Under the pieces are notes generated by a model that worked only from the letters and a program-made list of their open reading frames with translations, did not search any database and was not told the DNA's origin. Below are positions 3,328 through 22,379 of a stretch of DNA of 64,000 nt, in pieces. The stretch lies in contig VMER01000001.1 in assembly GCA_007375645.1 (NCBI GenBank), forward strand, positions 134,256-198,255. Direction: 5' to 3'. The position numbers were made by a program, and so were the translations under genes. The DNA comes from Parcubacteria group bacterium LiPW_15 (GTDB lineage: Bacteria > Patescibacteriota > Minisyncoccia > UBA6257 > 2-01-FULL-56-20). Each line of letters begins with the position of its first letter. Position 1 is the stretch's first letter.

Positions 3328-4767
3328 ATGGAGCCGAAAGCATCAAAATCGGTCCGGGTTCGGTTTGCCCCGAGCCCCACAGGTCCCTTCCATTTGGGAA
3401 GTGCCCGAGCTGCGCTTTTCAATTGGATCTATGCCCGTCAACAGAACGGTGTTTTTGTCTTGCGCATTGAGGATACCGACAAAGAACGTTCCAAAAAGGA
3501 GCATGAAGACGGGATCTTGGAATCCTTGCGCTGGCTTGGTCTTGATTGGGACGAAGGACCGGATGTCGGCGGAGAATACGGACCGTATCGCCAGAGCGAA
3601 CGAGAACCTATCTACGAAAAATATCTGAAGGAGCTTTTGGAAGCCGGAAAGGCGTATTACTGTTATTGCACCAAAGAAGAACTTGAGGCGCAAAAAGAAG
3701 CGATGATCGCCCAAGGTCTTCCGCCGAAATACAGCGGCCGTTGCCGGAACCTGGAATCGGCGCCCACCGATCGCAAACCGGAACTTATCCGCTTCAAAAC
3801 TCCGGAAGTCAAAGTAGAGTTCAAAGATATGATCCGCGGAAGCATGAGTTTTGACGCATCCTTATTCGGAGATATTCCGATAGCCAAAGATCTTCGTTCT
3901 CCGCTCTATAACTTCGCGGTGGTCATCGACGACGAGCTTATGAAGATAACCCACGTTATCAGGGGCGAAGATCATCTCTCGAATACTCCGAAACAGATCC
4001 TGTTCGGGAAAGCTTTGGGTTTCTCGGAGCCGACATTCGCTCATCTGCCGCTCATTCTTTCTGCCGACCGAAGCAAGCTTTCCAAGCGCTACGCAGAAAC
4101 TTCGCTTATTGAATATGAGAAACAAGGCTATCTTCCGGAAGCAATGGTCAATTTTCTCGTTCTTTTAGGATGGCATCCTAAGGGCGATCGCGAAGTATTT
4201 AAGGTTTCGGAGCTCATTGAAACCTTTGATCTAAAGCGCGTTCAAAAAGCCGGAGCTATCTGGAACGAAGAAAAACTTTCTTGGTTGAACAGCGAACACA
4301 TCCGCTCCATGGACACGGAAAAGCTAACCGCGCTGCTTAAGCCTTTTGTGATCGAGAAGTTTCCCGAAGCGGACGAAAAATTCCTTTTTAAGGTGGTAGC
4401 TGTGCAAAAAGACCGGCTTCGGACGCTTAAAGAATTCGCGGACATCGCCGGATTCTTCTTTGAGTTGCCGGCTTACGAATGGGGATTGCTTGTTTGGAAT
4501 AAAGAACCGCAGGAGAAGATAAAAGAATCTCTTCTCGCTACAGAAGAAGCTTTTAAAAATATTCCGGACGGCGAATTTACCAAAGAAAAAATAACCGACA
4601 GCCTAGCCTCTCTTGCCGAAGGTTTGGGCAGGGGAGTGGTCTTCTGGCCGCTGCGGGTATCCCTTTCCGGACAAAAAGCCTCACCGGACCCCGTGTCTAT
4701 CGCTGAAACTTTAGGCAAAGAAGAATCGCTTCGGCGCATTGAAAAAGCAATTAAAAAACTTCCGTAA
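3328..4767 (+). CDS. gltX: Glutamyl-tRNA synthetase
   Basis: Class I HIGH-type motif (HLGSARAALFNW) and a KLSKR motif, at the length expected for a GluRS. Confidence 0.9.
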   Translation: MEPKASKSVRVRFAPSPTGPFHLGSARAALFNWIYARQQNGVFVLRIEDTDKERSKKEHEDGILESLRWLGLDWDEGPDVGGEYGPYRQSEREPIYEKYLKELLEAGKAYYCYCTKEELEAQKEAMIAQGLPPKYSGRCRNLESAPTDRKPELIRFKTPEVKVEFKDMIRGSMSFDASLFGDIPIAKDLRSPLYNFAVVIDDELMKITHVIRGEDHLSNTPKQILFGKALGFSEPTFAHLPLILSADRSKLSKRYAETSLIEYEKQGYLPEAMVNFLVLLGWHPKGDREVFKVSELIETFDLKRVQKAGAIWNEEKLSWLNSEHIRSMDTEKLTALLKPFVIEKFPEADEKFLFKVVAVQKDRLRTLKEFADIAGFFFELPAYEWGLLVWNKEPQEKIKESLLATEEAFKNIPDGEFTKEKITDSLASLAEGLGRGVVFWPLRVSLSGQKASPDPVSIAETLGKEESLRRIEKAIKKLP

Positions 4768-4774
4768 GACCACG

Positions 4775-6067
4775 ATGACAGATCTTTTAAAAAAGACCTT
4801 TTCCGTAATTTCGACCCTCATAATTATTATGGGGCCGTCTAATTCTTTGGGCGCAACAACCGCGCCGCAGACGCGGGAAGAATTGGAACAGCAGATAAAA
4901 GACAGGTCCAAACAGCTGGAGACCTTGAATCAGGCTATCCAGACCACTCAAAATACCCTGAAAGACGTTCAGGGCCAGAAAACCACGCTTCAAAAGGAAG
5001 TTAAAACCCTAGATACCTCGCTCAAACAATTGGATTTGAGCATTCAATCCGACCGGGTAAACGCGCAAAAAATAAATTACCAGATCGATTCCATCGACAT
5101 GGATATCGAGGATATCGAGGCTTCCGTGCTGCAAAAAAACAGTTCTATTTCGGATCTTTTCCGCGAGCTTCAGAGGAATCAGGATAAAAATACGCTGATG
5201 ATATTTTTGGAAAACAAGACTATCAGCGAAGGTCTTTTGGCAACAAAATCTTTGGAGGATATACGTTCTCAGCTCGCGGTGGATATCCAATCGCTTAAGG
5301 AGTTGAAGGATCAATATCGGCAAAAAATGGAAGATCTTAGCGTCAAACACAAAGAGCTGGTCTATCATGAAGAAAATTTGAAGAATCGCAAACAAATAAC
5401 CGAAGAAACGAAGCAGGAAAGAGCCACGCTTTTGAGCCAGACCAAAGAGAAAGAAAGTGTTTATCAAAAACAGTTGGCCGATCTGAAAAAACTTCAGGAA
5501 GATATCGCGAATGAAATGGAGGCGATGGACGCCCAGCTCCGAAGCAAAGTTGATCCGAAGTTCTTGCCGCCGCTAAGTTCAGGAGTGCTGGGCTATCCCA
5601 TTCAGGGAGATAAAAGCGATATGACTCAGAGCTATGGAGCAACGGCCTTCGCAAAATATGGATATAAGGGTAAGTGGCATAACGGTATAGATTTCGGCGT
5701 ACCCATTGGAACTCCGATATTTGCCGCGGAGACAGGAATCATTCTTGCGACCGGGAATCAGGACTCATTCTGCTACAAAGGCGCATATGGAAAATTTGTT
5801 TTGATAAAGCACGAAAATAATTTAACGAGCCTTTACGGCCATCTTTCCAAATACATAGTTTCGCCCGGACAGAAAGTTGAGCGGGGACAGGTCATCGGTT
5901 ATTCCGGAAAAACCGGTTACGCGACCGGACCGCATTTACATTTCTCGGTTTTTGCCACGCCGACTATTCCGCCTGCCACCGGCAAATATCCGGAAGGAAT
6001 CAGCCCCTCCAAAAGCTGCGGCCCGATGCCATACGGCGGCGACTTGAATCCGTTGGGTTATCTCTAA
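4775..6067 (+). CDS. M23-family metallopeptidase with N-terminal signal peptide and long coiled-coil (EnvC-like murein hydrolase)
   Basis: C-terminal LytM/M23 motifs HxxxD and HLHF, with an N-terminal coiled coil. An alternative upstream start at 4739 is possible. Confidence 0.8.
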   Translation: MTDLLKKTFSVISTLIIIMGPSNSLGATTAPQTREELEQQIKDRSKQLETLNQAIQTTQNTLKDVQGQKTTLQKEVKTLDTSLKQLDLSIQSDRVNAQKINYQIDSIDMDIEDIEASVLQKNSSISDLFRELQRNQDKNTLMIFLENKTISEGLLATKSLEDIRSQLAVDIQSLKELKDQYRQKMEDLSVKHKELVYHEENLKNRKQITEETKQERATLLSQTKEKESVYQKQLADLKKLQEDIANEMEAMDAQLRSKVDPKFLPPLSSGVLGYPIQGDKSDMTQSYGATAFAKYGYKGKWHNGIDFGVPIGTPIFAAETGIILATGNQDSFCYKGAYGKFVLIKHENNLTSLYGHLSKYIVSPGQKVERGQVIGYSGKTGYATGPHLHFSVFATPTIPPATGKYPEGISPSKSCGPMPYGGDLNPLGYL

Positions 6068-6071
6068 AAAG

Positions 6072-6404
6072 ATGAAAGGAAAAATAATCCAAACTTTTGT
6101 CATAATTCTCGTCGCGCTCGCGGTCATCTATCTTTTTCAAAAAGAAATTTTGAATCTTCTTGGAAATGTGAGCGAGAGCGGCTTTAAAAATTATCTGGAA
6201 AGGGGAATCGCATTTTTGGCCGATCTGTTTGCCAGGTTGTTCGCTATCATTAAGTCGATCTTCTCCTTCTTTGCCGGAATAGTTTTAAAGATAATCGGTA
6301 ACGCTACCGAGTTATTTAAGCTCATAGACGGCATTTTGTGGGTCCTGGGTAAACTTTTTGCCCTTATTAAGGCCTTCTTTGGGTTCATTGCCGGCCTGGT
6401 TTAG
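6072..6404 (+). CDS. Small hypothetical membrane protein with internal repeats
   Basis: 110 aa, hydrophobic, with repeated LF..I..F.F.AG-type segments. Confidence 0.45.
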   Translation: MKGKIIQTFVIILVALAVIYLFQKEILNLLGNVSESGFKNYLERGIAFLADLFARLFAIIKSIFSFFAGIVLKIIGNATELFKLIDGILWVLGKLFALIKAFFGFIAGLV

Positions 6405-6419
6405 AGATAGGTTCCGGTT

Positions 6420-6640
6420 CAGAACCTTGTCGCGCCCAGATCCGCATTTAATTAAACTTCTGTCGTATAACGAACGGATAGAGTGTGTTGTTGCGATAAC
6501 TATTGAGTATAGTGTCGCAAAACCGGATTTCGCGACAGATTATTAAGCAACCCCATCTGTCGCTAAATCCGGTGACCTTGTTGCGACATATACATATGTC
6601 GCAAAAGGTATATTGTGCGACAGGTAGTATTGTAAAAAAG
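6420..6640. promoter_or_regulatory. Array of TGTCGC/GCGACA inverted-repeat motifs, including a perfect 22-bp palindrome TGCGACATATACATATGTCGCA (6582-6603) and the inverted repeat TGTCGC-n13-GCGACA (6513-6537)
   Basis: Read directly from the sequence. About nine half-sites fall within about 200 bp of AT-rich non-coding DNA. Confidence 0.4.
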
Positions 6641-6678
6641 CCAGCAGAATGGACAATCCTCTGCTGGTTTTGGCACGT

Positions 6679-6876
6679 CTACTTGATGGGCGCCGGTTCG
6701 TACGGGTGTCGGCGTGGCTTGGACGACGTCTTTGCCCGCCGCGTGGCTCTTTCTCGGGCAGCAACGATCTTCTTTGCGAGGCGCTGAAGTTCTTTCCTAT
6801 TCCAGTTGAGCGCCCGGATATCCTTCTTCGAAAGCTTTACGAGATACATTCCGTTGCCGAGCGATATCTTTTGCAC
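6679..6876 (-). CDS. Hypothetical small basic protein (GC-rich cassette 1)
   Basis: 65-aa ORF with a GTG start and a GAAGGAGG Shine-Dalgarno. A TTGGAC-17-TATACA promoter lies upstream, and the composition is GC-richer than the flanks. Confidence 0.45.
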   Translation of the reverse strand: MQKISLGNGMYLVKLSKKDIRALNWNRKELQRLAKKIVAARERATRRAKTSSKPRRHPYEPAPIK

Positions 6877-6911
6877 TTTCCCCTCCTTCGGCTACAAGTG
6901 ACCATATTCAG

Positions 6912-6940
6912 TGTATAACGGCTAAAGCTTTATTGTCCAA
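6912..6940 (-). promoter_or_regulatory. Sigma70-like promoter for cassette 1
   Basis: Minus-strand TTGGAC, a 17-bp spacer, then TATACA. Confidence 0.35.
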
Positions 6941-6960
6941 ATACTTAGTAGCTCCTATAA

Positions 6961-8310
6961 TTGAATCTCGTGGCCAAGCAACATATTCATTTTGTCGGCA
7001 TCGGCGGTATTGGGATGAGCGCGCTAGCCCGTTATTACTTGGCTCAAAATTGGGCTGTTTTCGGGTCCGACGTGGAAAAAAGCATAATTACCTCGGATCT
7101 TATAAAAGACGGCATATCGGTCAAAATCGGGCAGAAAAAGGAGAACATATCCCCTATCTTTGACCGTATCATCAAGAGTCAGGCGGTACAGGAGACCAAC
7201 CCGGAGATCTTAGAGGCAAGGAGGCTTGGACTTAAAGTTTTTTCTTATCCGGAGGCTGTCGGCGAGCTGACTAAAGATATTAAAACGATTGCCATTGCCG
7301 GCGCGCACGGCAAAAGCACGACTACGGCGATGATCGCCAAAATTTTGGTTGATGCCAAATTGGACCCAATGGTCATTTTGGGAGCGAAGTTTGATTTTTT
7401 TGACGGAAGAAACTTTCGCCTTGGAAAGAATTATTTGGTTTTGGAAGCGGACGAGTTCGGCCGGGCATTTTTGAATTATTACCCCACGCACACGGTTATT
7501 TTGAATATCGACAGAGAGCATTTGGATATTTATAGCGGCCTTAAGGACATTAAAGACACCTTTCTGCGTTTCATCTCTCAAACCAAACCGGGCGGTATTC
7601 TTATTTTGAACCGGGACGACAAAAATATTTTCTCGCTTAAAAATAAAATAGAAAAAATAGCCCTAAAAAATAAACTCAAAATTATCTGGTTCTCTTACTC
7701 CGACAAAATTCAGGCGGAAATATTCGGCGCGCTCCCTATTCCCGGGCGGCAGAACCGAACGGATGCGATCGCCGCTTATAATCTGGCATTGAGCCTTAAG
7801 GTGTCCAAAAAGAAGATATTAGAGTCCCTCTCCGGATATCCCGGCCTCTGGCGGCGAATGGAGCATAAAGGACCGGCTTTCGACGGTCGAGCGACGGTTT
7901 TCGACGATTATGCCCATCATCCTTCGGAAATTAAAGCCACCCTTTCCGCGTTCCGTGAAAAATACCCCGACTCCCCTATCCTTTGTGTTTTTAAACCGCA
8001 CCAGGCGAGCCGCCTTAAAATTTTGTTTAGGGATTTCTTAAATTCATTTTCCGCGGCCGATAAAATAATTATTCTCCCAACTTATATTGTTTTGGGCCGG
8101 GACATAGACGAGAAGGTTTTAACTGCGAAAAAATTGGCTGAAGACTTAGCCAAAAAATATCCGACGAAAAAGATCGTGTATCTTTCCGACTCCGATAAGC
8201 TTAAATCAACCCTGTATTCTCTTTTGTCTGCCGCGAATCCAAAGCCATCAGTTATCATTATGATGGGCGCTGGTTCGATAGCGAATCTTACAAAAAGCAT
8301 TTTGAACTGA
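6961..8310 (+). CDS. murC: UDP-N-acetylmuramate--L-alanine ligase MurC
   Basis: N-terminal IHFVGIGGIGMS motif and Mur ligase central and C-terminal domains. The start is TTG at 6961 or GTG at 6970, and no clear Shine-Dalgarno precedes it. Confidence 0.9.
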   Translation: MNLVAKQHIHFVGIGGIGMSALARYYLAQNWAVFGSDVEKSIITSDLIKDGISVKIGQKKENISPIFDRIIKSQAVQETNPEILEARRLGLKVFSYPEAVGELTKDIKTIAIAGAHGKSTTTAMIAKILVDAKLDPMVILGAKFDFFDGRNFRLGKNYLVLEADEFGRAFLNYYPTHTVILNIDREHLDIYSGLKDIKDTFLRFISQTKPGGILILNRDDKNIFSLKNKIEKIALKNKLKIIWFSYSDKIQAEIFGALPIPGRQNRTDAIAAYNLALSLKVSKKKILESLSGYPGLWRRMEHKGPAFDGRATVFDDYAHHPSEIKATLSAFREKYPDSPILCVFKPHQASRLKILFRDFLNSFSAADKIIILPTYIVLGRDIDEKVLTAKKLAEDLAKKYPTKKIVYLSDSDKLKSTLYSLLSAANPKPSVIIMMGAGSIANLTKSILN

Positions 8311-8328
8311 TTATATTAATCACCTCCA

Positions 8329-9087
8329 ATGTTCGATAACTATAAAAACGAAGAAGATTACAAAGAGCAGAACGGTTATACCATTGATGGTATTTGGTAC
8401 CCGCGGGTCACGCGTATCGTCGGTATAAAATCCAAACCGGCCCTCTATCGGTTCTACGGCGAAGCTCAGAGCTTCAAGGCGGCGCAGGAAAGCACGGAGA
8501 ATTCGGCAAAAGAAGGCACGTTAGTACATGAGGCGGTGGAAGCCTTGATGCTAGGGCATTCTCCCGTGATCGACCCGCTGGTGGCGCCGGCCGTGCAAGC
8601 CTATTTAAATTTTGTGGAAAGCAGAAACATAGAGACTGCTCCGGAATGGGTAGAGCGGAGAATTAAACATGCCGACCATCGCTATGCCGGCACGATCGAT
8701 GCGCTTGCGCTCATGGACGGAAAATTCGGTGTTTTGGACATCAAAACTTCGCAGGGAATTTATCGCGACTATAATCTCCAAACTTCCGCTTATGTGGAGG
8801 CGCTTCTCGAGGATTTTCCGAATATTCAAACCCGTTGGATATTGCGCATCGATCAGCAGCAGGTCTGCAATGTTTGCGGAGCGACGATGAGGACTAAGGG
8901 CGGACGGGAAAAAATAAAACGCGGACGTTCTAAGCCCTGCGAAACGCACATTTGGAGCGAAACGAAAGGCATTGTGGAGTTGCAGGAGTTTCCATATTGG
9001 AAGAGCGACTTTCAAGGTTTTTTGGGCGCGAAACGGTTGTGGGAGTGGGAAAATGAAGAGTGGTTAAAAAGAGTCGGATATCTATAA
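8329..9087 (+). CDS. PD-(D/E)XK nuclease superfamily protein with inserted C4-type zinc ribbon
   Basis: D..D-IK motif (GTIDALALMDGKFGVLDIKTSQ) plus a CxxC-x18-CxxH segment. This resembles RecB/Cas4-type nucleases. Confidence 0.6.
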   Translation: MFDNYKNEEDYKEQNGYTIDGIWYPRVTRIVGIKSKPALYRFYGEAQSFKAAQESTENSAKEGTLVHEAVEALMLGHSPVIDPLVAPAVQAYLNFVESRNIETAPEWVERRIKHADHRYAGTIDALALMDGKFGVLDIKTSQGIYRDYNLQTSAYVEALLEDFPNIQTRWILRIDQQQVCNVCGATMRTKGGREKIKRGRSKPCETHIWSETKGIVELQEFPYWKSDFQGFLGAKRLWEWENEEWLKRVGYL

Positions 9088-9095
9088 AATGAAAA

Positions 9096-9113
9096 CCTCG
9101 CCGGATGGCGAGG
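9096..9113. terminator. Bidirectional hairpin terminator
   Basis: Hairpin CCTCGCC-GGAT-GGCGAGG with an A-run before it and a T-rich run after it. It lies between convergent genes. Confidence 0.55.
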
Positions 9114-9140
9114 CTGTTTGCTCTCTGAAGAACTGGTTGG

Positions 9141-9383
9141 TCAACAACCGACCTGGGGGTAGGACTCTTCCCCTTTGGGCGGATCGACAGCGGCCACCTT
9201 GCTTCGGATGATCCCCCCGACGATTCCGAAGATGTGCGGGTTCTCGAGAAACATCTCGCCGGCCGCTTCGACCTCGGTGCCTCGTTGCGGGCCAGACAAG
9301 GTGGTGCCGTTCACGTAGACGCTCATTGTGAAGCGGGAAGTGCCGTTCTGACCTTCGGATTCCGTGATTCGAACGCTGGCCAT
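9141..9383 (-). CDS. Hypothetical protein (GC-rich cassette 2)
   Basis: 80-aa ORF with an AAGGAG Shine-Dalgarno. A TTGACT-17-TATGTT promoter lies upstream, and GC is higher than the flanks. Confidence 0.45.
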   Translation of the reverse strand: MASVRITESEGQNGTSRFTMSVYVNGTTLSGPQRGTEVEAAGEMFLENPHIFGIVGGIIRSKVAAVDPPKGEESYPQVGC

Positions 9384-9416
9384 CGATATCTCCTTTCCGA
9401 TTTGGGGCTGTCGAAA

Positions 9417-9445
9417 AACATACAGTGACTCCCCTCCCGAGTCAA
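9417..9445 (-). promoter_or_regulatory. Sigma70-like promoter for cassette 2
   Basis: Minus-strand TTGACT, a 17-bp spacer, then TATGTT. Confidence 0.4.
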
Positions 9446-9455
9446 GAAGGATCGC

Positions 9456-9638
9456 CTATTGCAGTCCTGCGGTCGTAGAGCACTTCTCGATTATTATCGG
9501 AGCCCGTGAATCTTTTTTTCCGTAAAGCTCTCCGATATAGAAGCTCAAGGCGAGGGCCAGAACAGCCAGAATGGCCCAAAAGACCATATGTTTATTGGCT
9601 AAAGTCTTCTCACTCCCCTCTCCCATGAACATTGACAT
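9456..9638 (-). CDS. Small hypothetical membrane protein
   Basis: 60-aa ORF with one predicted TM helix. Support is weak. Confidence 0.25.
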   Translation of the reverse strand: MSMFMGEGSEKTLANKHMVFWAILAVLALALSFYIGELYGKKDSRAPIIIEKCSTTAGLQ

Positions 9639-9699
9639 GATATTAACTATAGCATAGAATAGATACTCGTTAGCGCTGTAAACAATTATTTAAACAAAT

Positions 9700-9972
9700 A
9701 TGGCACATACAAAAGCGCTCGGCTCTACAAAGTTAGGCCGCGATTCACGGGCCAAGAGACTGGGCGTAAAAATTCAGGATGGGCAGAAAGTGATGACCGG
9801 TCAGATAATTTTGCGTCAGCGCGGAACCCATTACCTTCCGGGAAAGAATGTTAAACTCGCCAAAGACGATACCATTTTCGCAATGAAAAACGGTATTGTT
9901 AAATTCGGCGTCACCATGAAGACCAAATTCGACGGAAATCGCAGGAAGGCAACCATAGTCGCAGTGGTCTAA
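9700..9972 (+). CDS. rpmA: 50S ribosomal protein L27
   Basis: [16 protein letters not shown]... matches the L27 signature. Confidence 0.9.
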
Positions 9973-10038
9973 CCAAAAGATTTTTTCAAAAACCCTCCGA
10001 GTTCCGGAGGGTTTTCGGTTTATTTTGCACCGAGCCGT

Positions 10039-10473
10039 TCATTCCGCCTCTATTTTAATTTTTAGCTTAGCCATTATTCCCTTGGGCAAGTGAGCTTCCG
10101 CTTCATGGACCCCAAGTTCTTTTAAAGGTTTTGATATTTTTATTTCAACCCTGTCTTTGGTTATCAGTCCGGTATCACGCAAGCCCTTCAGGATATCTTC
10201 TTTATTCACAGATCCGAATACCACGCCTTTTTTGTCTACCTTCAGATTAAACTGGAGTTCCCGTTCGGATAGGAGTTTTGCCAGCCTCTCTAGTCTTTCT
10301 TCGGTTGCCTTGTCGTTTTTTTGAATCGCGGAAAGTTCTCCAAGGCTTTGTTCATTCGCAATCCGTGCCAATTTTTGAGGAAGCAAAAAGTTTCGCGCAT
10401 ATCCGTCGGAAACACTCTTTACATCATTTCTTTTTCCAATGCCGCGAACATCACTTAGAAGAATTACTTTCAT
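10039..10473 (-). CDS. rplI: 50S ribosomal protein L9
   Basis: [10 protein letters not shown].....V..GYARNFL is the L9 N-terminal domain signature. Confidence 0.85.
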
Positions 10474-11684
10474 TATTTTTTAATTATGTTTTCCAGAACC
10501 TGGATGGCTTTATCGAGCTGAGGATCACGATTATTTTTTATGTCGTCGTCAGAAAGCTGTATCTCATAATCCGGTTTTAGTCCGCTGCCTTCGAGTATGT
10601 GTCCGGAAGGCAGAACCCAGTGGGCGATGGTAAGTTTAAGCTGGCTGCCGTCAGGAAGCTCCTTGAGCTGTTGGACAGTGCCCTTTCCGTAGCTGGTTTC
10701 GCCGACGAGCGGTATCTTAGCTTGGTCTCGGAGTGCTCCTGCCAAAATTTCGGAAGCCGAAGCGGAACCTTTATTTATCAATATTACGGTCGGAAATCCA
10801 TAAAGATCCGCGCTGCCGCTTGCTTTTAAGGTTTCGATCGGGCCGGTCTTGTCGTTTTCGCTCACCACTATCGTTCCGGATTTGAGGAACCAGCCGGCCA
10901 GATCTACGGCTACGTCCAGGAATCCTCCCGGATCGTCCCGAAGATCCAAAATTATACCTTCGGCATTATTCGAGGCCGCCTGTTTCAGCGCCCCGTAAAA
11001 ATCTTTGCTCGCATTGCCGTTGAAGTTGTGCAAAGAGATATGCGCAAATTTATTTTTCATTTCAAAATCCACGGTCGGCACTTCAATTCTGCCTCGTTTG
11101 ATACTTATATCTTTTGCCGCCGTCCAACCTTCGCGGAAAACATTCAAGACAACTTCGGTGTTCTCCGGTCCGCGGATATAATTTACCGCCTCATCAATTT
11201 GTATGCCGTCGGTAGAGGTAGAGTTGATCTTGAATATCCAATCCCCTGCCCTTAGCCCTGCCGCCGCTGCAGGCGAACCCTTGAGGGGTGCGATAACGGT
11301 GAGTTGTCCTTTTCTTATCCCAAGTTCGGCTCCGATTCCGCTAAAATTCCCCTGAACGTCTTCCATAAATTTCTTTCCCTCCTGCGGATTAAAATATTCC
11401 GAATAAGGATCGCCCAAGGACCCTACCAAACCTCTTATTGCGCCGTAGACCCGCGCCTGGCCGTCTATTTTGTCAGCCCTGAGATAGATGTCGTCTATAG
11501 TTTTCCAGGCCGACCAGAACGTGCGAAAATCAGCCGGAGCCTGCCCATCCACATTCGTCACCCCTTTTGCCACCACCACCTCCGGAGTTCTTTTTCCGAC
11601 TTCGTTTCCCCAGTAAAAACCGCTGCCCATGAGTGCTGCCGCGGAGAGAATCACTAATGTAAAAGAAATCAGCTTTTTTTGCAT
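10473..11684 (-). CDS. ctpA: Carboxyl-terminal processing protease, S41 family
   Basis: N-terminal TM helix, a PDZ domain and an S41 catalytic domain ([13 protein letters not shown]). Confidence 0.85.
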
Positions 11685-11724
11685 TGCTTAATTTTACCCT
11701 ATTGGCCTTGAATGGAGCAACAAA

Positions 11725-11753
11725 TTGAAAAAATGCTTTAAATTTCTTATGAT
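11725..11753 (+). promoter_or_regulatory. Sigma70-like promoter TTGAAA-17-TATGAT
   Basis: Read from the sequence. The GTG at 11760 follows 6 nt after the -10 box, so the transcript may be leaderless. Confidence 0.4.
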
Positions 11754-11759
11754 ACAGAC

Positions 11760-12062
11760 GTGCCGATAGACTCCTCCTATCTCGACGAAATAAAGAAAAG
11801 GAAGAAAGATTCCAAGGTCTATAAGGAGTTTCAATTGACCGGATTGGAGATAGCCGAGATATTGGACGATGAAAAGCATAAGTCTTTATATATCAAGCTC
11901 GCAAAGACCAATTCCCGGCAAAAACTAATGTCAGTCGCGAAGGACGTGGCGGACAGGAAAAACGTTAAAAATATGGGCGCTTATTTTATGAAGCTATGGA
12001 AGGAATCCAAGATCGCGAAATCCAGAAAAAAGATAATTCTTGCTAAAAACGCAAAATATTAA
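11760..12062 (+). CDS. Hypothetical lysine-rich protein
   Basis: 100-aa ORF upstream of def. The start codon is uncertain. Confidence 0.4.
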   Translation: MPIDSSYLDEIKKRKKDSKVYKEFQLTGLEIAEILDDEKHKSLYIKLAKTNSRQKLMSVAKDVADRKNVKNMGAYFMKLWKESKIAKSRKKIILAKNAKY

Positions 12063-12575
12063 ATGGATCACATTTGGAAACTAGCCGATAAAAAAGAAGA
12101 GAAGCTGCTTCGAGAGAAAGCGGTTCCTTTTGATTTTAACTCCATGAGCCGAAAGGAGATCCAGGAGATGGTGACCAAGATGCGCAAAATGATGAAGGAG
12201 GCGAACGGTGTTGGGCTTGCTGCGAATCAAGTAGGTCTTCCCTTTCACATGTTTGTGGCCGAAGTTCCTGATGAAAAATCCGGCGGGAAAAAGTTCTACG
12301 CTCTTTTTAACTCCAAGGTAGAACGAAACGGCAAGGAAACCAACAAAGTGGAAGAAGGATGTTTGAGCGTTCCTTTGACCTACGGTGAAGTGGAGCGGCC
12401 GAGCCGCGTGACCTTAACCGGACAGGACAAAACCGGAAAGCTCGTGAAAATCAAAGCCTGGGGTCTTTTAGCTCGGGTTTTTCAGCACGAGACAGACCAT
12501 TTAAACGGTATTGTTTTTATCGATCGCGCGAAAACACTTTACGACCTAGTTTTAGAGGAAGATGAAAAACATTAA
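12063..12575 (+). CDS. def: Peptide deformylase
   Basis: Motifs GVGLAANQVG, EGCLS and HETDHLNG. Confidence 0.9.
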   Translation: MDHIWKLADKKEEKLLREKAVPFDFNSMSRKEIQEMVTKMRKMMKEANGVGLAANQVGLPFHMFVAEVPDEKSGGKKFYALFNSKVERNGKETNKVEEGCLSVPLTYGEVERPSRVTLTGQDKTGKLVKIKAWGLLARVFQHETDHLNGIVFIDRAKTLYDLVLEEDEKH

Positions 12576-13434
12576 ATATATATTTTTCGGTTCGCCTGAA
12601 TTCGCGCAGACTATTCTTTCCGCGCTTATAACCGCCGGACTTCCCCCGATCGCGGTCGTGACCAATCCGGATAGGCCTTTCGGGCGAAAGAAAATACTCA
12701 CTCCCCCGCCGGTTAAGCTTTTGGCGGAAAAATACAACATTCCTGTCTTTCAACCGGAAAAGATCGGCGAAGAATGCGTTGAGGAGGTAAAGACCTTAGA
12801 AGCCGAGGCTTTCGTGGTGGCAGCATACGCCAAAATAATTCCAAAAACATTGATCGATGCCGTCCCGTTGGGCGCCTTGGGGATTCACCCGTCTCTCCTG
12901 CCGCTCTACCGAGGAGCTTCTCCTATCCAAGGCGCGATATTGGGTGGAGAAAAAGAAACGGGGGTCGCAATTTATAAGATGGATGAAGCCGTTGATCATG
13001 GCCCGGTCTTTGCCGAGCGCAAAACCGAGATAGGAGAAAACGAAACTTACGCGGAACTCCAAAAACAGCTGGCGAAGATAGCCAGCGAAATGATCGTGGA
13101 AATTTTACCGAAATTCGCGAGTGGCGAAATGACTCCGGTGGAACAAAGGCACGATGAAGCCACACTCACCAAAAAATTTAAAACCGAAGACGGATTTATA
13201 AGCGAAGAAATGCTCGCTAAGGCATTGTCCGGAGAAAACCAGGAAGAAGCAGAACGAGTTAGCCGAACTATCCGGGCCTTAAATCCGGATCCCGGAGTTT
13301 GGACCCTTCGACAAGCTCAGGGCAAGCCTCAGAGAATAAAGCTTCTTTCGGCGAAACTCGAAAATGGGCAGCTAAAATTGGAATCTGTTCAGATGGAGGG
13401 CAAGACTCCGCAATCGGCAAAACTATATTTTTAA
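12562..13434 (+). CDS. fmt: Methionyl-tRNA formyltransferase
   Basis: Formyltransferase N-terminal domain (HPSLLPLYRG) plus a C-terminal domain, and def-fmt synteny. Confidence 0.9.
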   Translation: MKNIKYIFFGSPEFAQTILSALITAGLPPIAVVTNPDRPFGRKKILTPPPVKLLAEKYNIPVFQPEKIGEECVEEVKTLEAEAFVVAAYAKIIPKTLIDAVPLGALGIHPSLLPLYRGASPIQGAILGGEKETGVAIYKMDEAVDHGPVFAERKTEIGENETYAELQKQLAKIASEMIVEILPKFASGEMTPVEQRHDEATLTKKFKTEDGFISEEMLAKALSGENQEEAERVSRTIRALNPDPGVWTLRQAQGKPQRIKLLSAKLENGQLKLESVQMEGKTPQSAKLYF

Positions 13435-17648: not shown

Positions 17649-17719
17649 TGCGGGGTCGTCTAACGGTAGGACATCGGCCTTTGAAGCCGAGTATTTTGGT
17701 TCGAGCCCAAACCCCGCAG
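17649..17719 (+). tRNA. tRNA-Gln (anticodon UUG)
   Basis: Hand-folded cloverleaf. Acceptor UGCGGGG/CCCCGCA with U1-A72, D stem GUCU/GGAC, anticodon stem UCGGC/GCCGA with loop CUUUGAA, T stem UUUGG/CCAAA with loop TTCGAGC. CCA is not encoded. Confidence 0.75.
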
Positions 17720-17837
17720 CAAGCGAGCAAAGGCGAAGCGCAGTGGCCAGGCCAGCAGGCAGTGGCTACAAGTATGACCAACTCATGATAGGTTATCCCG
17801 CTCGAGGAGCGCAAAGGTCGTCATATCAAACATCAAT

Positions 17838-18071
17838 ATGCTTACCGAAGAAGAAAAGAGTTTTTTGACAGGTCAATTCTTAAACCCCACTTTTGGCGAG
17901 GTAAATACGGAGGATCAGGAGAATTCGACGACATTTTCTTTTGCTCCTGCAAATCCTCAAAAAGAAGTTGAATCAATTTCAGAATTTCTTGCAAAATTCC
18001 CTCGTTGGGAACTAACAAAAGAAACTGATTCAGCAGGGAAAAAATTTGTACAGATAACACTAAAGAAATAA
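17838..18071 (+). CDS. Hypothetical protein
   Basis: 77-aa acidic ORF at the island edge. Confidence 0.35.
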   Translation: MLTEEEKSFLTGQFLNPTFGEVNTEDQENSTTFSFAPANPQKEVESISEFLAKFPRWELTKETDSAGKKFVQITLKK

Positions 18072-18095
18072 GTTGACCGGATCCCACCAAAGAAT

Positions 18096-18119
18096 CCACT
18101 CGCCTCTGAGTGGTTTTTT
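18096..18119 (+). terminator. Rho-independent terminator
   Basis: Hairpin CCACTC-GCCTCT-GAGTGG followed by TTTTTT. Confidence 0.6.
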
Positions 18120-18255
18120 GGTGGAATTTGACATATTATAATGGCATCAAAAATGTCTGAATTCTATTCTCCAGCTCCTCAAGAATCGCAAGTTTTGGAG
18201 CCTCCTTTTCTAAGCTCATCGTTTATAATTATAGCCCTCGTAACGCCTTATTACA

Positions 18256-18993
18256 TCAGTAGCTCAATAAGCTTTTCGCTTGTATCTCCTTGATTCCATT
18301 TGGAAGCAGATGGTAAAATCCATCCTTAACTGCAATAAATTTTTCAACCCTCATTGATTCAACGGTTTTATTGAAACGACTTCGATTGTTATCTTTCGTT
18401 TTCGAAAAAAGGAATTCAATATCCCGTTTTTGTTTACTGAGCAATACTAATATCTCTTGCTTTACAAGGAGGTCTTCCCTCGCTATAAATTCTTCGCCCT
18501 CAATTTCAAAAATAACTGGATAATTAGGGACGGCAATTTTATCAATAATAGCTTGGGCTTCATCCATGGAATAATTCCCGTAGACTCGGATTAACTCTGC
18601 CATAATCCAATTAGCGGAGGACAGAACAAAGCTTGCGTCAATTTTATTTGCACTGAATCCACCGAGATGTGCAACATTCCGATTGTTTCTAAAATCGAGG
18701 AGTAGTTTTGTTAAAACAGTAACTTTTTGACGAACATGCTCATCAATGACTGGGTCGTTAGTGACTTTATTAATAATGGTTGTTTTCTCTGCTGCTTTAA
18801 TATCCTGACCAGGCGGAGTGATGGGTATATCAAGCAAATGTTGGAAAATCCTTAAAACTGCCTCGGCAAATCTGCCTCCATTAAGCTGACTTGGCCCGCA
18901 ATCATTCAGCTGAAAGCGACGTTTGATCTCCACATATTCTGCGAAGAGACTGTCCTCAAGATTGTCGGGTATGGTTTTAAGACTTTTCGCCAT
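18256..18993 (-). CDS. Hypothetical protein with HEPN-like Rx6H motif (possible abortive-infection/DUF4145-like)
   Basis: The motif RNNRNVAHLGG fits the HEPN R-x4-6-H pattern. Start chosen at MAKSLKT. Island gene. Confidence 0.4.
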   Translation of the reverse strand: MAKSLKTIPDNLEDSLFAEYVEIKRRFQLNDCGPSQLNGGRFAEAVLRIFQHLLDIPITPPGQDIKAAEKTTIINKVTNDPVIDEHVRQKVTVLTKLLLDFRNNRNVAHLGGFSANKIDASFVLSSANWIMAELIRVYGNYSMDEAQAIIDKIAVPNYPVIFEIEGEEFIAREDLLVKQEILVLLSKQKRDIEFLFSKTKDNNRSRFNKTVESMRVEKFIAVKDGFYHLLPNGIKEIQAKSLLSY

Positions 18994-19411
18994 TCTTTTT
19001 AAGAATATCTTTCCATTGTTTTCCAAGAACATAAAATCCCCGAGTATTTTTTGCTGCATCAGCCCAACCGTTTTCTTTCGCTCTGGTTGAAAAGATCGAG
19101 GCATAGGGTTGCCCGATAATACCCGAACAGCTTTTCCAAATAGTTTTAATCTGCAATAAGTCTATGGGAACAGACTCTTTCCCGCCCGCCAAATACGCCA
19201 GAATAAGAACAAAGAACTCTTGACCATTAAAGCCGGGAGAATACTTTTTAATGAATGCTCGCTGATTCAATGAGAAGTCTAAACCATCGACACTCAGGTC
19301 TTTTATAGGTTCATTCTTTTTCCCAAAAACCGTTGCCTCAAGCCTTTCGATTCTCTCTTTGATTTCTGCGATTTCTTTTTCCATTTTGATTATTTGAAGA
19401 TTTCTTTCCAA
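18977..19411 (-). CDS. Hypothetical coiled-coil protein, paralog A
   Basis: 144 aa. Shares the pattern coiled-coil ... DFS.NQRAF.KK ... F.L..AY ... W...L with 19390-19821 and 19823-20233. Confidence 0.5.
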   Translation of the reverse strand: MERNLQIIKMEKEIAEIKERIERLEATVFGKKNEPIKDLSVDGLDFSLNQRAFIKKYSPGFNGQEFFVLILAYLAGGKESVPIDLLQIKTIWKSCSGIIGQPYASIFSTRAKENGWADAAKNTRGFYVLGKQWKDILKKNGEKS

Positions 19412-19821
19412 TTCGGCCTAAGGGAGTAAAGTGAATTTTTCGGAGACACGATCCAATCATTTTCCCTAGAGCGTACCGCAAATGTAGGTGAAAACTTCGG
19501 CTTGATTATGCTTTTCATCTTCGACCACTCTCCCTGTATGTCGGTCAGCGATGCCTCTTCGGTGCCCTTTTTATTAACGAAGTAAGCAACCATAAGGGTA
19601 AAAGTCTTTGGACCAGACATATCCTTCGCGTGCTTTTTGAAGAATGCTCTCGCTTGCATAGAAAAATCTATGTCCGAATCGACTGCGAGGCGAGCTGGAT
19701 TTTTAACGATCGCTGCTTCATTTTTATCATCTTCCGGCATAGACTCATTAAGAACCCGTAAGCATTTTTCGGCTGCATCCTTTATTAGTCGTAGTTGTCT
19801 TTCTAGTTCAGTTTTATTCAT
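19390..19821 (-). CDS. Hypothetical coiled-coil protein, paralog B
   Basis: 143 aa with clear similarity to paralog A. Confidence 0.5.
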   Translation of the reverse strand: MNKTELERQLRLIKDAAEKCLRVLNESMPEDDKNEAAIVKNPARLAVDSDIDFSMQARAFFKKHAKDMSGPKTFTLMVAYFVNKKGTEEASLTDIQGEWSKMKSIIKPKFSPTFAVRSRENDWIVSPKNSLYSLRPNWKEIFK

Positions 19822-19822
19822 T

Positions 19823-20233
19823 TTAATTTTTATTTAATTGGTCGATAAAACCTTCGCCCGAATCAGTGAGGTGCCAGGCCTTTTTCATCTCCTTTTTATC
19901 TTCTGCCTCCACCAAATATCCCTTATCAATGTTCTTGTTGATTTTGTCATTCAGGTTTGACGGGATAACCTCCTTTGCTAGTTTATACACCTTGGTTAAA
20001 TCATCGATATTGAACGGACTCGTTCCTAGCTTGTGCTCGATAAAATAACAAAGAACAAGTGTTTTTTGAACTTCGCCCGATGGTTTTTTTTCGATGAGAA
20101 ACTCTTTAGGAGAAATCTGTCTTTGAATGGATGTCGAAGCAGCTTTGTGAGGCGCGCCCAACAGCTTTTTTTCTAACGCCAGAAGTCGTTCCTCGTGATC
20201 TGCCAGCTTCCTTTCTATTGAAGTGTTATCCAT
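19823..20233 (-). CDS. Hypothetical coiled-coil protein, paralog C (more divergent)
   Basis: 136 aa with the same architecture: an N-terminal coiled coil followed by a KTLVLCYFIEHKLG segment. Confidence 0.45.
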   Translation of the reverse strand: MDNTSIERKLADHEERLLALEKKLLGAPHKAASTSIQRQISPKEFLIEKKPSGEVQKTLVLCYFIEHKLGTSPFNIDDLTKVYKLAKEVIPSNLNDKINKNIDKGYLVEAEDKKEMKKAWHLTDSGEGFIDQLNKN

Positions 20234-20242
20234 GATTTTGAT

Positions 20243-20647
20243 TTATTGTTTTTTTGAGTTTTTCTCGACGACCTCTTTGATTCGATAATTTGGCACGTAA
20301 TAACCCAATTCTTTGTTTTTTTTTATTTTTTTGGCATCAAACAGTTTTTTTAGTGTGCTCTTTACACTTCCCTCAGGAATGACACCCAAGTTCACAATCT
20401 GACCTTGATTCAGGCCATCGGGCGTACCGTCTTCCAATAAGGAAAGTGCCTTGGAAGCCAAGAGTATGATTTCCACTTTCTCTATATTATTATCCACTTT
20501 TTCAAACGCGGGCAGGAAACCGATTTGTTTCGATGCTCGATCAAAAACGACATACGGCTTAAGGAAGGTAGCGACGATTTGGCGATCTATCGACTTGATA
20601 TCATCTGCAAAAAGGTCGGCGAGTGGATCTTTTGGTTTTTGGTTCAT
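20243..20647 (-). CDS. Hypothetical protein
   Basis: 134-aa ORF, first gene of the minus-strand island cluster. Confidence 0.4.
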   Translation of the reverse strand: MNQKPKDPLADLFADDIKSIDRQIVATFLKPYVVFDRASKQIGFLPAFEKVDNNIEKVEIILLASKALSLLEDGTPDGLNQGQIVNLGVIPEGSVKSTLKKLFDAKKIKKNKELGYYVPNYRIKEVVEKNSKKQ

Positions 20648-20707
20648 GTTTTTACTATTTTTATAATTCTACCGCTATCGACTACAGAGTCAAGTGTATA
20701 GCGAATG

Positions 20708-20798
20708 TGAACTCGCTGTCAAATCCCAAAGAATCGCCAATGGACATTCGCCTCAAATATAATTTCATCGGCTGAGTAGCGCCCAAATCTAAAAGAGG
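20708..20798. repeat. 91-bp direct repeat, copy 1
   Basis: Identical base-for-base to 21088-21178. Confidence 0.9.
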
Positions 20799-21087
20799 CC
20801 ACTACCCTTAGTATCCCATAGTATATCTAATTATCCTATTAAGCACATCGGAGGGGAAGACTGATTGTGGGAGTGAGTAAAATTACCAAAAGATCAATAA
20901 AATACGGCCTTTTTCAGAAAGGAGCAAGGGATTGATTTTGGTTCAGTTACGCTAGATGGTTGATGAATTTATGATAATTACCTCGATTATCACGTTAATA
21001 CTGTGTTTTGACCATATAAATAAAGGGTTATCCCATTTAATGGATAGGATTAAATACTATAAATACAACAATACTCCAATATTCTTT

Positions 21088-21178
21088 TGAACTCGCTGTC
21101 AAATCCCAAAGAATCGCCAATGGACATTCGCCTCAAATATAATTTCATCGGCTGAGTAGCGCCCAAATCTAAAAGAGG
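21088..21178. repeat. 91-bp direct repeat, copy 2
   Basis: Identical to 20708-20798. The copies are separated by 289 bp of AT-rich DNA. Confidence 0.9.
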
Positions 21179-21396
21179 GGCGTGTGTTACCTTTGCCACT
21201 ATTTGAGATATGGAAGGGTGCTCGAGATGCGTCGTCAGATCGCCCGGAAAGGCTTCAAAAAATGCCTTACGGGTTTGAACCCAGTCGGTTCTAGCTCGAG
21301 TCCCCCAGCAAAGAATGTTGTGATGTTGAAGACCTTTTCGCCAAAGTAACTAAAAAGAGCGGTTTGATGTTATCGCACCGCTCCGTGGTTCGACGC

Positions 21397-22182
21397 TTAT
21401 AGGCGCCAGGGATTCGGCTTCAGAATCGGAAGTAGTCTTTTCCGAAAATCGAGTGCCAAGATGCTGAAGAAAACGTAACGTTCCGTTTGCTCTAACGACG
21501 CAAGCAGGAATTCCCCGTTCGGAAATGGTGATTCCGGACTCAGTAAGAATCTGCCCTCCTCGGCTTCGCAGGCGATTTTAAACGCCAGGTCTTTTCGGAT
21601 ATCGGCGTCCGTCAGGTCGAGGCCAGAATCTTCTCGAACCCAAGCCGCATGTCTCTCGAAATCAATTTCAAATGCCGAGGGAGAGACAAATTTAGACGTA
21701 TTCGCCTGGACCTCTTTTGCCGCGACGGGACGACCCCCGAGCACTTCTTCTTCCCAATCCAACAGGATGATGCTTCCAGCCGCCGGAGATTTATCAATCT
21801 GAGCCGAGAGCATTGTCTTGTATTGAGCTTCTACATTCGGACAAACTCTGCCGGTATCGATATAGGATCTGTTTAGGGTAATCCACCAATTAACCGTGGC
21901 TCCGTTTCCGGAGAACAGACCTATGATTTTAGGAATGAGCTCTTGAATCAGTTCCAATTCCGTTTTTATTGGTGAAAACTCCCCACCCTGCGCTTTCAGG
22001 CGTTCTTCCAAGTCCTTCGCAACGCACCACTGGGTCAGAATCTGAACCGGTCTGCCATTCAGAATACAGTCGTTAACGTAATCGTCTGCCCACTCGTCTA
22101 TTTTCTTGTTATTTGCTCTAACGAGTTTATTCTGCATTCGCAGGGCAGCCATGATTATCTGAGTCTGTTTCAACCTCATGGT
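21397..22182 (-). CDS. Hypothetical protein
   Basis: 262 aa from the ATG at 22182, which has a GGAAGGAG Shine-Dalgarno. The longer upstream extension would overlap tRNA-His and is rejected. Confidence 0.45.
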   Translation of the reverse strand, partial: TMRLKQTQIIMAALRMQNKLVRANNKKIDEWADDYVNDCILNGRPVQILTQWCVAKDLEERLKAQGGEFSPIKTELELIQELIPKIIGLFSGNGATVNWWITLNRSYIDTGRVCPNVEAQYKTMLSAQIDKSPAAGSIILLDWEEEVLGGRPVAAKEVQANTSKFVSPSAFEIDFERHAAWVREDSGLDLTDADIRKDLAFKIACEAEEGRFLLSPESPFPNGEFLLASLEQTERYVFFSILALDFRKRLLPILKPNPWRL

Positions 22183-22306
22183 TTTTTTCTCCTTCCATTG
22201 TAAAAGTGCTCCTGATCTCCCAAGGAGAACAGACTTAATTTGCACAAATTTATATTTGAGCCGATTAAGCCTGCTCTTCTTTATTTTTCTTTTTTTATAG
22301 CTCATG

Positions 22307-22379
22307 GGTCCTGGACGGGACTTGCACCCGCAACCAATGCCTTCACGGGGCACCGCTCTTCTATTGAGCTACCAGGACC
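22307..22379 (-). tRNA. tRNA-His (anticodon GUG) with encoded G-1
   Basis: Hand-folded. G-1 pairs with discriminator C73. Acceptor GUCCUGG/CCAGGAC, D arm GCTC-AATAGAA-GAGC, anticodon loop CCGUGAA, T arm GCGGG-TGCAAGT-CCCGT. Confidence 0.75.

Follow-up and report, generated by a model that had tools for sequence, protein, structure and literature searches.

A probable horizontally acquired, integrase-less mini-island in a Parcubacteria genome carries a candidate HEPN–winged-helix toxin or defence cassette

The stretch of DNA analysed here, called the window, comprises 64,000 nt of the genome of Parcubacteria group bacterium LiPW_15 (GenBank assembly GCA_007375645.1, contig VMER01000001.1, forward-strand positions 134,256 to 198,255). 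Positions are given in the numbering of this 64-kb window, and relatives are cited by locus labels (L001–L043). The subject is a cassette of five minus-strand genes, the last of which encodes a protein with predicted HEPN-like and winged-helix domains. The cassette lies between a tRNA-Gln and a tRNA-His gene, in a 3,572-bp segment (17778–21349) that appears to be a small acquired island and whose borders follow from comparison with L033 on the left and L034 on the right. Six minus-strand open reading frames (ORFs) and one small plus-strand ORF (77 aa) are found between the two tRNAs (Table 1). ARAGORN and the scores of the Rfam tRNA model (gathering cut-off 29 bits) bear out the inward-facing 3' ends of the tRNAs reported in a preliminary description of this DNA. 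Its statement that only hypothetical genes lie between them also stands, since none has a credible match in Pfam, PADLOC, NCBIfam or PHROGs; nothing usable was retrieved for the island ORFs from these libraries.

Table 1. Features of the tRNA-Gln to tRNA-His interval, in window numbering.
Feature	Position	Strand	Description
tRNA-Gln (anticodon TTG)	17649-17720	+	ARAGORN; Rfam RF00005, 60.8 bits
Left-end segment, 34 nt	17778-17811		Conserved; holds small CGCTC-ctc-GAGCG hairpin; 97% identity to L033 2116-2149
77-aa putative ORF	17838-18071	+	Coding status uncertain; from ORF listing
HEPN gene	18256-18993	-	245 aa (not 282); predicted N-terminal HEPN-like helical bundle and C-terminal winged helix
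w144	18977-19384	-	135 aa (start at 19384); overlaps HEPN gene start by 17 nt
w143	19390-19821	-	143 aa; paralogue of w144 (BLASTP 31% identity, E 2e-20; hhalign probability 98.5%)
w136	19823-20233	-	136 aa; predicted N-terminal helix and winged-helix-like C-terminus; BLASTP matches to 14 loci, 31-45% identity
w134	20243-20647	-	134 aa; first operon gene; separate small family; winged-helix-like C-terminus
Putative promoters of w134	20666-20722	-	Two overlapping sigma-70-like matches upstream of w134; consensus scan only, 10/12 each
Direct repeat copy 1, 91 nt	20708-20798		100% identical to copy 2
Spacer, 289 nt	20799-21087		AT-rich, GC 0.33; between repeat copies
Direct repeat copy 2, 91 nt	21088-21178		100% identical to copy 1
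Right terminal segment of island	21179-21349		GC 0.49; missing from L034
Intrinsic terminator of 302-aa gene	21352-21382	-	Hairpin and T-run; last core sequence before island; kept in L034 up to breakpoint
302-aa gene	21397-22305	-	Parcubacteria-specific core gene; abuts tRNA-His; outside island
tRNA-His (anticodon GTG)	22306-22378	-	ARAGORN; Rfam tRNA model, 57.5 bits

The five genes form an operon in the order w134-w136-w143-w144-HEPN, in which neighbouring genes overlap or are separated by gaps of at most 9 nt and the HEPN gene comes last. Across the aligned homologues of the HEPN protein (n = 41, spanning 51–89% identity), the block FRNNR[DN]VAHLGGF is invariant, which bears out the HEPN-like motif proposed earlier. 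Its residues R102-N103-N-R105-[DN]-V-A-H109, that is, R-N-x5-H plus R105, agree with the HEPN pattern Rx4-6H with a polar residue after the arginine. Homologues (n = 278) are typically 244–264 aa long, share 50–92% identity and occur in Patescibacteria, a Deltaproteobacteria bin, Bradyrhizobium and Hyphomicrobiales (Alphaproteobacteria). The protein has no match in Pfam or NCBIfam, precomputed Pfam domains are absent from all 120 homologues listed, and the family profile matched no PDB sequence. The sole PADLOC match in the island is a weak one (E 0.0026) of WH_III-A to the C-terminal winged helix of the HEPN protein; a winged-helix fold is predicted both here and in w144. RNase toxins of toxin-antitoxin and abortive-infection systems are established HEPN biology (PMC3710099), and by analogy the protein is probably a latent RNase that serves as toxin or abortive-infection effector.

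In the model of w144, a disordered linker joins an N-terminal helix to a PadR/AphA/TubR-like winged helix, and a similar helix-plus-winged-helix design may be shared by w143, w136 and w134. The preliminary description spoke of three tandem paralogs. This is clear for w144 and w143, but the 136-aa protein is linked to them by profile only, through a remote connection of its family to the w144 family via family B3 (hhalign 92.5% and 55.6%, profile comparison only). The w136 family is the one that adjoins the HEPN gene in Alphaproteobacteria and Saccharibacteria. Homologues of w134 occupy the first cassette position in nine other loci, and two members of this family show weak MarR_2 matches (E 0.006 at best). 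No nucleotidyltransferase (MNT) match was found for the partner proteins in Pfam, and the four small proteins, the 260-aa core of the 302-aa gene, the 77-aa ORF and a 49-aa ORF all lack a match in PADLOC. Judged by analogy, these small proteins probably partner the HEPN protein in a neutralising, regulatory or sensing capacity.

Upstream of w134 extends a stretch of 702–749 bp without a convincing ORF. It contains two exact 91-nt direct repeats, so the non-coding block and repeats described earlier are real features of the sequence. Both copies, 380 bp apart, lie to one side of the cassette, and the first -35 box (TTGACA) of the putative w134 promoters falls inside copy 1. We read the block as an operon leader with a recent 380-bp partial duplication. 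Copy 2 and about 210 nt of the spacer form a unit of about 300 nt, which recurs as a single copy with 79% identity in L042 and L043 (115–408); there it is contiguous, in a non-coding context, and is followed by what we take, from reading by eye, to be a truncated PemK/MazF-like reading frame. A 98-codon open frame through copy 2 (21050–21349) was considered as a gene, but a full HMMER search against 1.84 billion representatives returned only tandem-repeat junk translations and one 66-aa ORF. The latter match reflects DNA-level homology of the non-coding unit, and the open frame was accordingly rejected as a gene. Interpretation of the repeat unit as a structured RNA was likewise rejected (no Rfam match at E up to 1; fold z-scores of -0.56 and +0.14). 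The common Patescibacteria-type cassettes have a conserved leader of their own of 330–700 nt, unrelated to that of the window, with identities of up to 81.6% over 450 nt (L003 8386–8863 versus L013 6353–6863; also L014, L002, L015, L016 and L029). These leaders are present with or without an adjacent recombinase gene and may hold regulatory or recombination sites.

The source is a metagenome-assembled genome, and the length of the repeat (exactly 91 nt, 100% identical) would fit a k-mer overlap, so an artefact of assembly or binning might account for the 380-bp duplication, if not for the whole island. This is highly improbable in the light of independent assemblies. The Logan assembly of SRR8863432 (L001) matches 21149–22341 at 100% and breaks one k-1 (30 nt) inside copy 2, as expected at the graph branch of a true repeat, while L033 independently joins the cassette to tRNA-Gln and the repeat-plus-spacer unit is contiguous in L042 and L043.

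The right border of the island can be placed between 21349 and 21350. L034, a JGI metagenome contig, is 98.6% identical to window 23266–21350 over 1,917 nt and then loses all similarity; beyond the breakpoint it continues into unrelated DNA (GC 0.391) encoding a 108-aa protein and a membrane protein. Neither ORF (L034 1918–2681) has a counterpart in the 64-kb window. With other DNA in L034, the position just past the 302-aa terminator is a cargo-swapping hotspot. Because L001, an independent assembly, bridges the 21349 junction and reproduces 21149–22341 exactly, the right junction is not an assembly chimera. It is this right-hand junction alone that can be compared with a near-identical strain; in place of the empty junction sought in relatives, L034 shows alternative cargo on that side. 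The GC content of the island is 0.400, against 0.476 and 0.472 in its flanks; along the sequence it drops to 0.39–0.40 across 18–21 kb and is about 0.47 elsewhere.

The left border was defined with L033, an ENA contig of 3,349 nt that is 85.5% identical at the nucleotide level to window 19903–18271 (the HEPN gene with w144 and w143). At its end lies an orthologue of the window's tRNA-Gln that carries compensatory changes and is about 85–87% identical. Similarity between L033 and the window stops at ...GAGTTGG in both genomes, with unrelated DNA beyond. From the 3' end of tRNA-Gln it is 57 nt to the left border of the island and 535 nt to the HEPN stop codon. Positions 21300–21312 match the 3' end of a tRNA-like sequence in L033 exactly over 13 nt, which is weak and only suggestive. 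That sequence of about 115 nt (L033 3106–3225) adjoins tRNA-Gln but was recognised as a true tRNA by neither ARAGORN nor Rfam. Its 3' terminal 22–23 nt (GCTGGGGGACAGGGAATCGAAC) are repeated about 930 nt away (2149–2171); the two copies bracket an alpha/beta-hydrolase gene and look like the ends of a second small insertion stacked beside the cassette. Within the left part of the island, the 77-aa ORF has no family match in the four libraries and no counterpart in related loci, and a terminator-like bidirectional hairpin (CCACTCGCCTCTGAGTGG, 18096–18113) with a T-run on the plus strand lies between it and the end of the HEPN operon. Exact-sequence look-up of a 133-aa protein in the left flank returned no record.

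The preliminary description took tRNA-His as the other bracket of the island, which the relatives contradict. In 12 of 12 relatives (L008–L011 and L034–L041; 44–98% protein identity), the 302-aa gene follows this tRNA immediately on the same strand, after 0–60 nt. In the window the start codon abuts the 3' end of the tRNA, and the pair is possibly co-transcribed. The 302-aa gene has 70 homologues, all in Parcubacteria-type genomes and mostly annotated at about 301–306 aa; as its N-terminal extension is conserved at the protein level, the gene spans the full 302 codons rather than the 260-aa core alone. Its GC content is normal (0.465). Given this conservation and composition, the tRNA-His/302-aa unit is ancestral and the 3' end of tRNA-His is no integration junction. 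In L008, the closest relative with a long contig (72% aa identity), the 302-aa gene is followed by PriA, where the window has the island, and the cassette genes are thus not kept at this locus in related genomes. For annotation, the case illustrates that inward-facing tRNAs alone do not delimit an island, here because tRNA-His belongs to a conserved tRNA-gene pair, and that a near-identical strain fixes the true border to the base. Compared with L008 and L009, the gltX-M23 peptidase, L27-L9 and def-fmt blocks (window 3328–13434) are kept; the tRNA-His/302-aa unit is displaced relative to them and PriA is not adjacent, indicating frequent local rearrangement in the lineage.

The low GC content, the divergence of L034, the presence of PriA at the locus in L008 and the bridging of the junction by L001 together identify 17778–21349 as an island. 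It might instead be an ancestral locus, a lineage-specific regulatory operon of winged-helix transcription factors that lies between two tRNAs by chance. Such an origin would fit the winged-helix domain predicted or inferred in every product, the same cassette beside tRNA-Gln in L033 and the lack of attachment (att) sites and a recombinase in the window. It is nevertheless very unlikely, because the cassette is missing at the junction in the 98.6%-identical strain, the GC content is 7 points under that of the genome, and the distribution is patchy across phyla at up to 92% identity. Recombinases and direct repeats are also associated with the cassette elsewhere, and the cassette is 85.5% identical to that of L033 at the nucleotide level, while the adjacent tRNA-Gln is only about 85–87% identical.

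In other genomes the cassette is rare: among 185,579 species representatives, 21 carry the HEPN gene. Where upstream sequence is available, most loci, though not L026, have two to four small ORFs ahead of this gene in the same orientation; the ORFs belong to about six families that are shuffled between loci. The gene order is A1-A2-A3-HEPN in most Patescibacteria, B1-B2-HEPN in Alphaproteobacteria and A1-B2-A3'-A3-HEPN in the window. In L003/L012, L015 and L016, a large serine recombinase, recognised by the combination of Resolvase, Recombinase and Zn_ribbon_recom domains, is encoded directly upstream of the cassette; no such gene occurs in the window. Recombinase and cassette form a unit of about 3.6–3.9 kb that is inserted in differing contexts. 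The neighbouring genes include those for MmeI, an Eco57I-like methylase, a methyltransferase with MvaI endonuclease and zeta and PemK toxins, as well as a Schlafen-like helicase, a GIY-YIG nuclease and DUF3800. Truncated or frameshifted copies were found in L028, L031 and L032, as expected for dispensable conflict genes. In three Hyphomicrobiales loci (L020, L021 and L025), a convergent gene of about 990–1070 aa, which we presume from its N-terminal sequence to be uvrA-like, lies about 750 nt downstream of the HEPN gene and suggests a shared insertion site or vertical descent in this clade. A literature search found no description of the cassette or of the source genome.

Several of these loci adjoin tRNA-type genes. 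The cassette of L014 lies 264 nt from a tRNA-Ser, the recombinase of L015 lies 102 nt from a tRNA-Asn, and in L017 (Saccharibacteria) a 71-nt direct repeat, 93% identical between its copies (5764–5834 and 9107–9177), brackets the whole 3.3-kb recombinase-less cassette, with one copy abutting the 3' end of the tmRNA. The L017 arrangement is textbook att-like. The two tRNA-Ser genes of L014 were considered as att duplicates and rejected, as they are distinct isoacceptors. A tRNA-type gene is found within 600 nt in 4 of about 12 Patescibacteria loci, which would be unlikely by chance (by our rough binomial estimate ≤0.01, assuming one tRNA per 15–30 kb). The idea that a tRNA 3' end served as integration site has support on the tRNA-Gln side, which is hotspot-like in view of the same neighbour in L033 and of the tRNA-Ser, tRNA-Asn and tmRNA elsewhere; it fails for the tRNA-His side. 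Mobility of the cassette is indicated by its patchy spread with up to 92% identity, the serine recombinases, the tRNA/tmRNA neighbours, the L017 repeats and the sharing with L033.

Most simply, and by analogy with the related elements, this mobility may be attributed to their serine recombinases, lost here or acting in trans. An integrative element of novel type, as considered in the preliminary description, is not needed, since elsewhere an ordinary large serine recombinase accompanies the same cassette. If the element were self-mobile and of a new type, integration and excision would fall to the winged-helix and HEPN proteins, with the 91-nt repeats as recombination sites. No known recombinase in the window, perfect repeats of 91 nt, a 34-nt end common to the window and L033, and an L017 copy flanked by direct repeats and likewise without an encoded recombinase would agree with this. 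The 91-nt copies, however, are one-sided and 380 bp apart and so do not bracket the cassette, none of the proteins is predicted to have a catalytic domain for DNA strand exchange, and a conventional large serine recombinase beside related cassettes explains the mobility more simply, including in trans. We therefore give self-mobility very little credence. The ancestral, self-mobile and artefact explanations are each at odds with at least one direct observation.

Taken together, window 17778–21349 is probably a horizontally acquired, integrase-less mini-island in a strain-variable hotspot that carries a new HEPN-based toxin or defence module. Several results weigh against this interpretation. 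The earlier finding of no recognisable recombinase was upheld: the profile libraries detected no integrase, recombinase or transposase among the island ORFs, and tblastn with three large serine recombinases of related loci revealed no remnant in the window, including the 700-bp non-coding block, so the case for integration is made only by analogy with other loci. A search for partial copies of the tRNA-Gln or tRNA-His 3' end, allowing up to three mismatches, yielded none, and att-type repeats between the two island flanks did not rise above shuffles, but for one marginal match with a score of 29. No known system model in PADLOC-DB v2.0.0 was matched, and the phage, plasmid and viral collections contain no copy of the cassette. 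Four partner genes per toxin are unusual among toxin-antitoxin systems, and the resemblance of L033 may stem from a common ancestor of the locus instead of a separate insertion.

If the island does carry such a module, the HEPN protein would act as the latent RNase, in the role of a toxin or abortive-infection effector, and the small winged-helix proteins would serve as its neutralisers and autoregulators, possibly also as sensors of foreign nucleic acid, the five proteins together making up a toxin-antitoxin-like defence or addiction module. Elsewhere, the HEPN gene and its small ORFs ride a compact large-serine-recombinase element; the copy in the window may have lost the recombinase or never had it, and would be either a decayed element or one mobilised in trans. 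The earlier suggestion of a defence island thus remains plausible as to a defence or toxin role, but not as to any known system that PADLOC recognises. Whether the cassette acts in defence at all bears on a further alternative, in which it is an addiction module for post-segregational killing or stabilisation rather than an anti-phage system and a HEPN toxin with unstable partners retains the island. Three genomes in which the cassette is the sole cargo of the 3.6–3.9-kb serine-recombinase element, the lack of the cassette in PADLOC and the resemblance of the partners to the DNA-binding autoregulators typical of type II antitoxins speak for addiction. The degraded copies in L028, L031 and L032, in contrast, show ready loss, and the cassette clusters repeatedly with restriction-modification and other defence genes. 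Defence and addiction roles are also not mutually exclusive. A purely addictive function is unlikely, though it deserves more weight than the other alternatives.

On a broader scale, we tentatively propose, as a possibility that goes well beyond the island itself, that the cassette is an undescribed immune or addiction system in which a HEPN–winged-helix RNase is restrained or triggered by two to four shuffled coiled-coil/winged-helix proteins from about six families. It would have spread between Patescibacteria and Alphaproteobacteria by a serine-recombinase element of less than 4 kb that favours tRNA/tmRNA sites, with the window copy as a recombinase-less derivative. To our knowledge, few defence systems are known in Patescibacteria. 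A working module would represent a new HEPN architecture, with an effector fused to a winged helix and modular small winged-helix partners replacing the MNT antitoxin, and the island would exemplify a cargo element that is very small, borne by a recombinase and exchanged between Alphaproteobacteria and the ultra-small Patescibacteria. Outside the island, a second stretch of low GC content (0.40–0.42; 31001–35000) encodes a ThiI/PP-loop-like protein, a 219-aa protein without assigned function, a family-9 glycosyltransferase and a lycopene-cyclase-domain protein, and has possibly been acquired too.

As in tRNA/tmRNA-associated integrative islands, the island of the window starts 57 nt from a tRNA 3' end, has an atypical GC content and occupies a site of strain-variable content, and sister cassettes, one of which is flanked by 71-nt direct repeats, lie beside tRNA-Ser, tRNA-Asn and tmRNA. 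In contrast to such islands, the window has neither an integrase nor a tRNA-derived att repeat, the island is only 3.6 kb long, and the enzyme associated with the cassette elsewhere belongs to the large serine recombinases, where a tyrosine integrase would be usual. Mobilisable islands that lack an integrase and depend on a recombinase supplied in trans are similar in being compact, cargo-only islands at a hotspot, with related copies adjoining a recombinase gene, but differ in that the island of the window has no demonstrated att sites or helper element. The small proteins may recall PadR, AphA, TubR and MarR winged-helix proteins in fold, but they show no sequence-level membership in these families, carry another N-terminal extension and are encoded in an operon with a HEPN protein.

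A further parallel is offered by the HEPN toxins (HEPN-MNT, AbiD/AbiF/Abi2 and AbiV; PMC3710099), with which the cassette shares the conserved R-polar-x-H motif, possibly within a four-helix HEPN-like domain, a small gene in a tight operon with its partners, a patchy spread, and locations among restriction-modification and toxin genes and on mobile elements. It departs from them in that its protein matches no HEPN profile of Pfam, NCBIfam or PADLOC and in that its partners are two to four small helix-plus-winged-helix proteins of several interchangeable families, not the MNT nucleotidyltransferases of HEPN-MNT. Moreover, the putative toxin of the cassette itself bears a C-terminal winged helix, whereas a 2013 survey of HEPN proteins lists winged-helix fusions solely in giant helicase/restriction endonuclease proteins and in the EC042_2821 family (PMC3710099).

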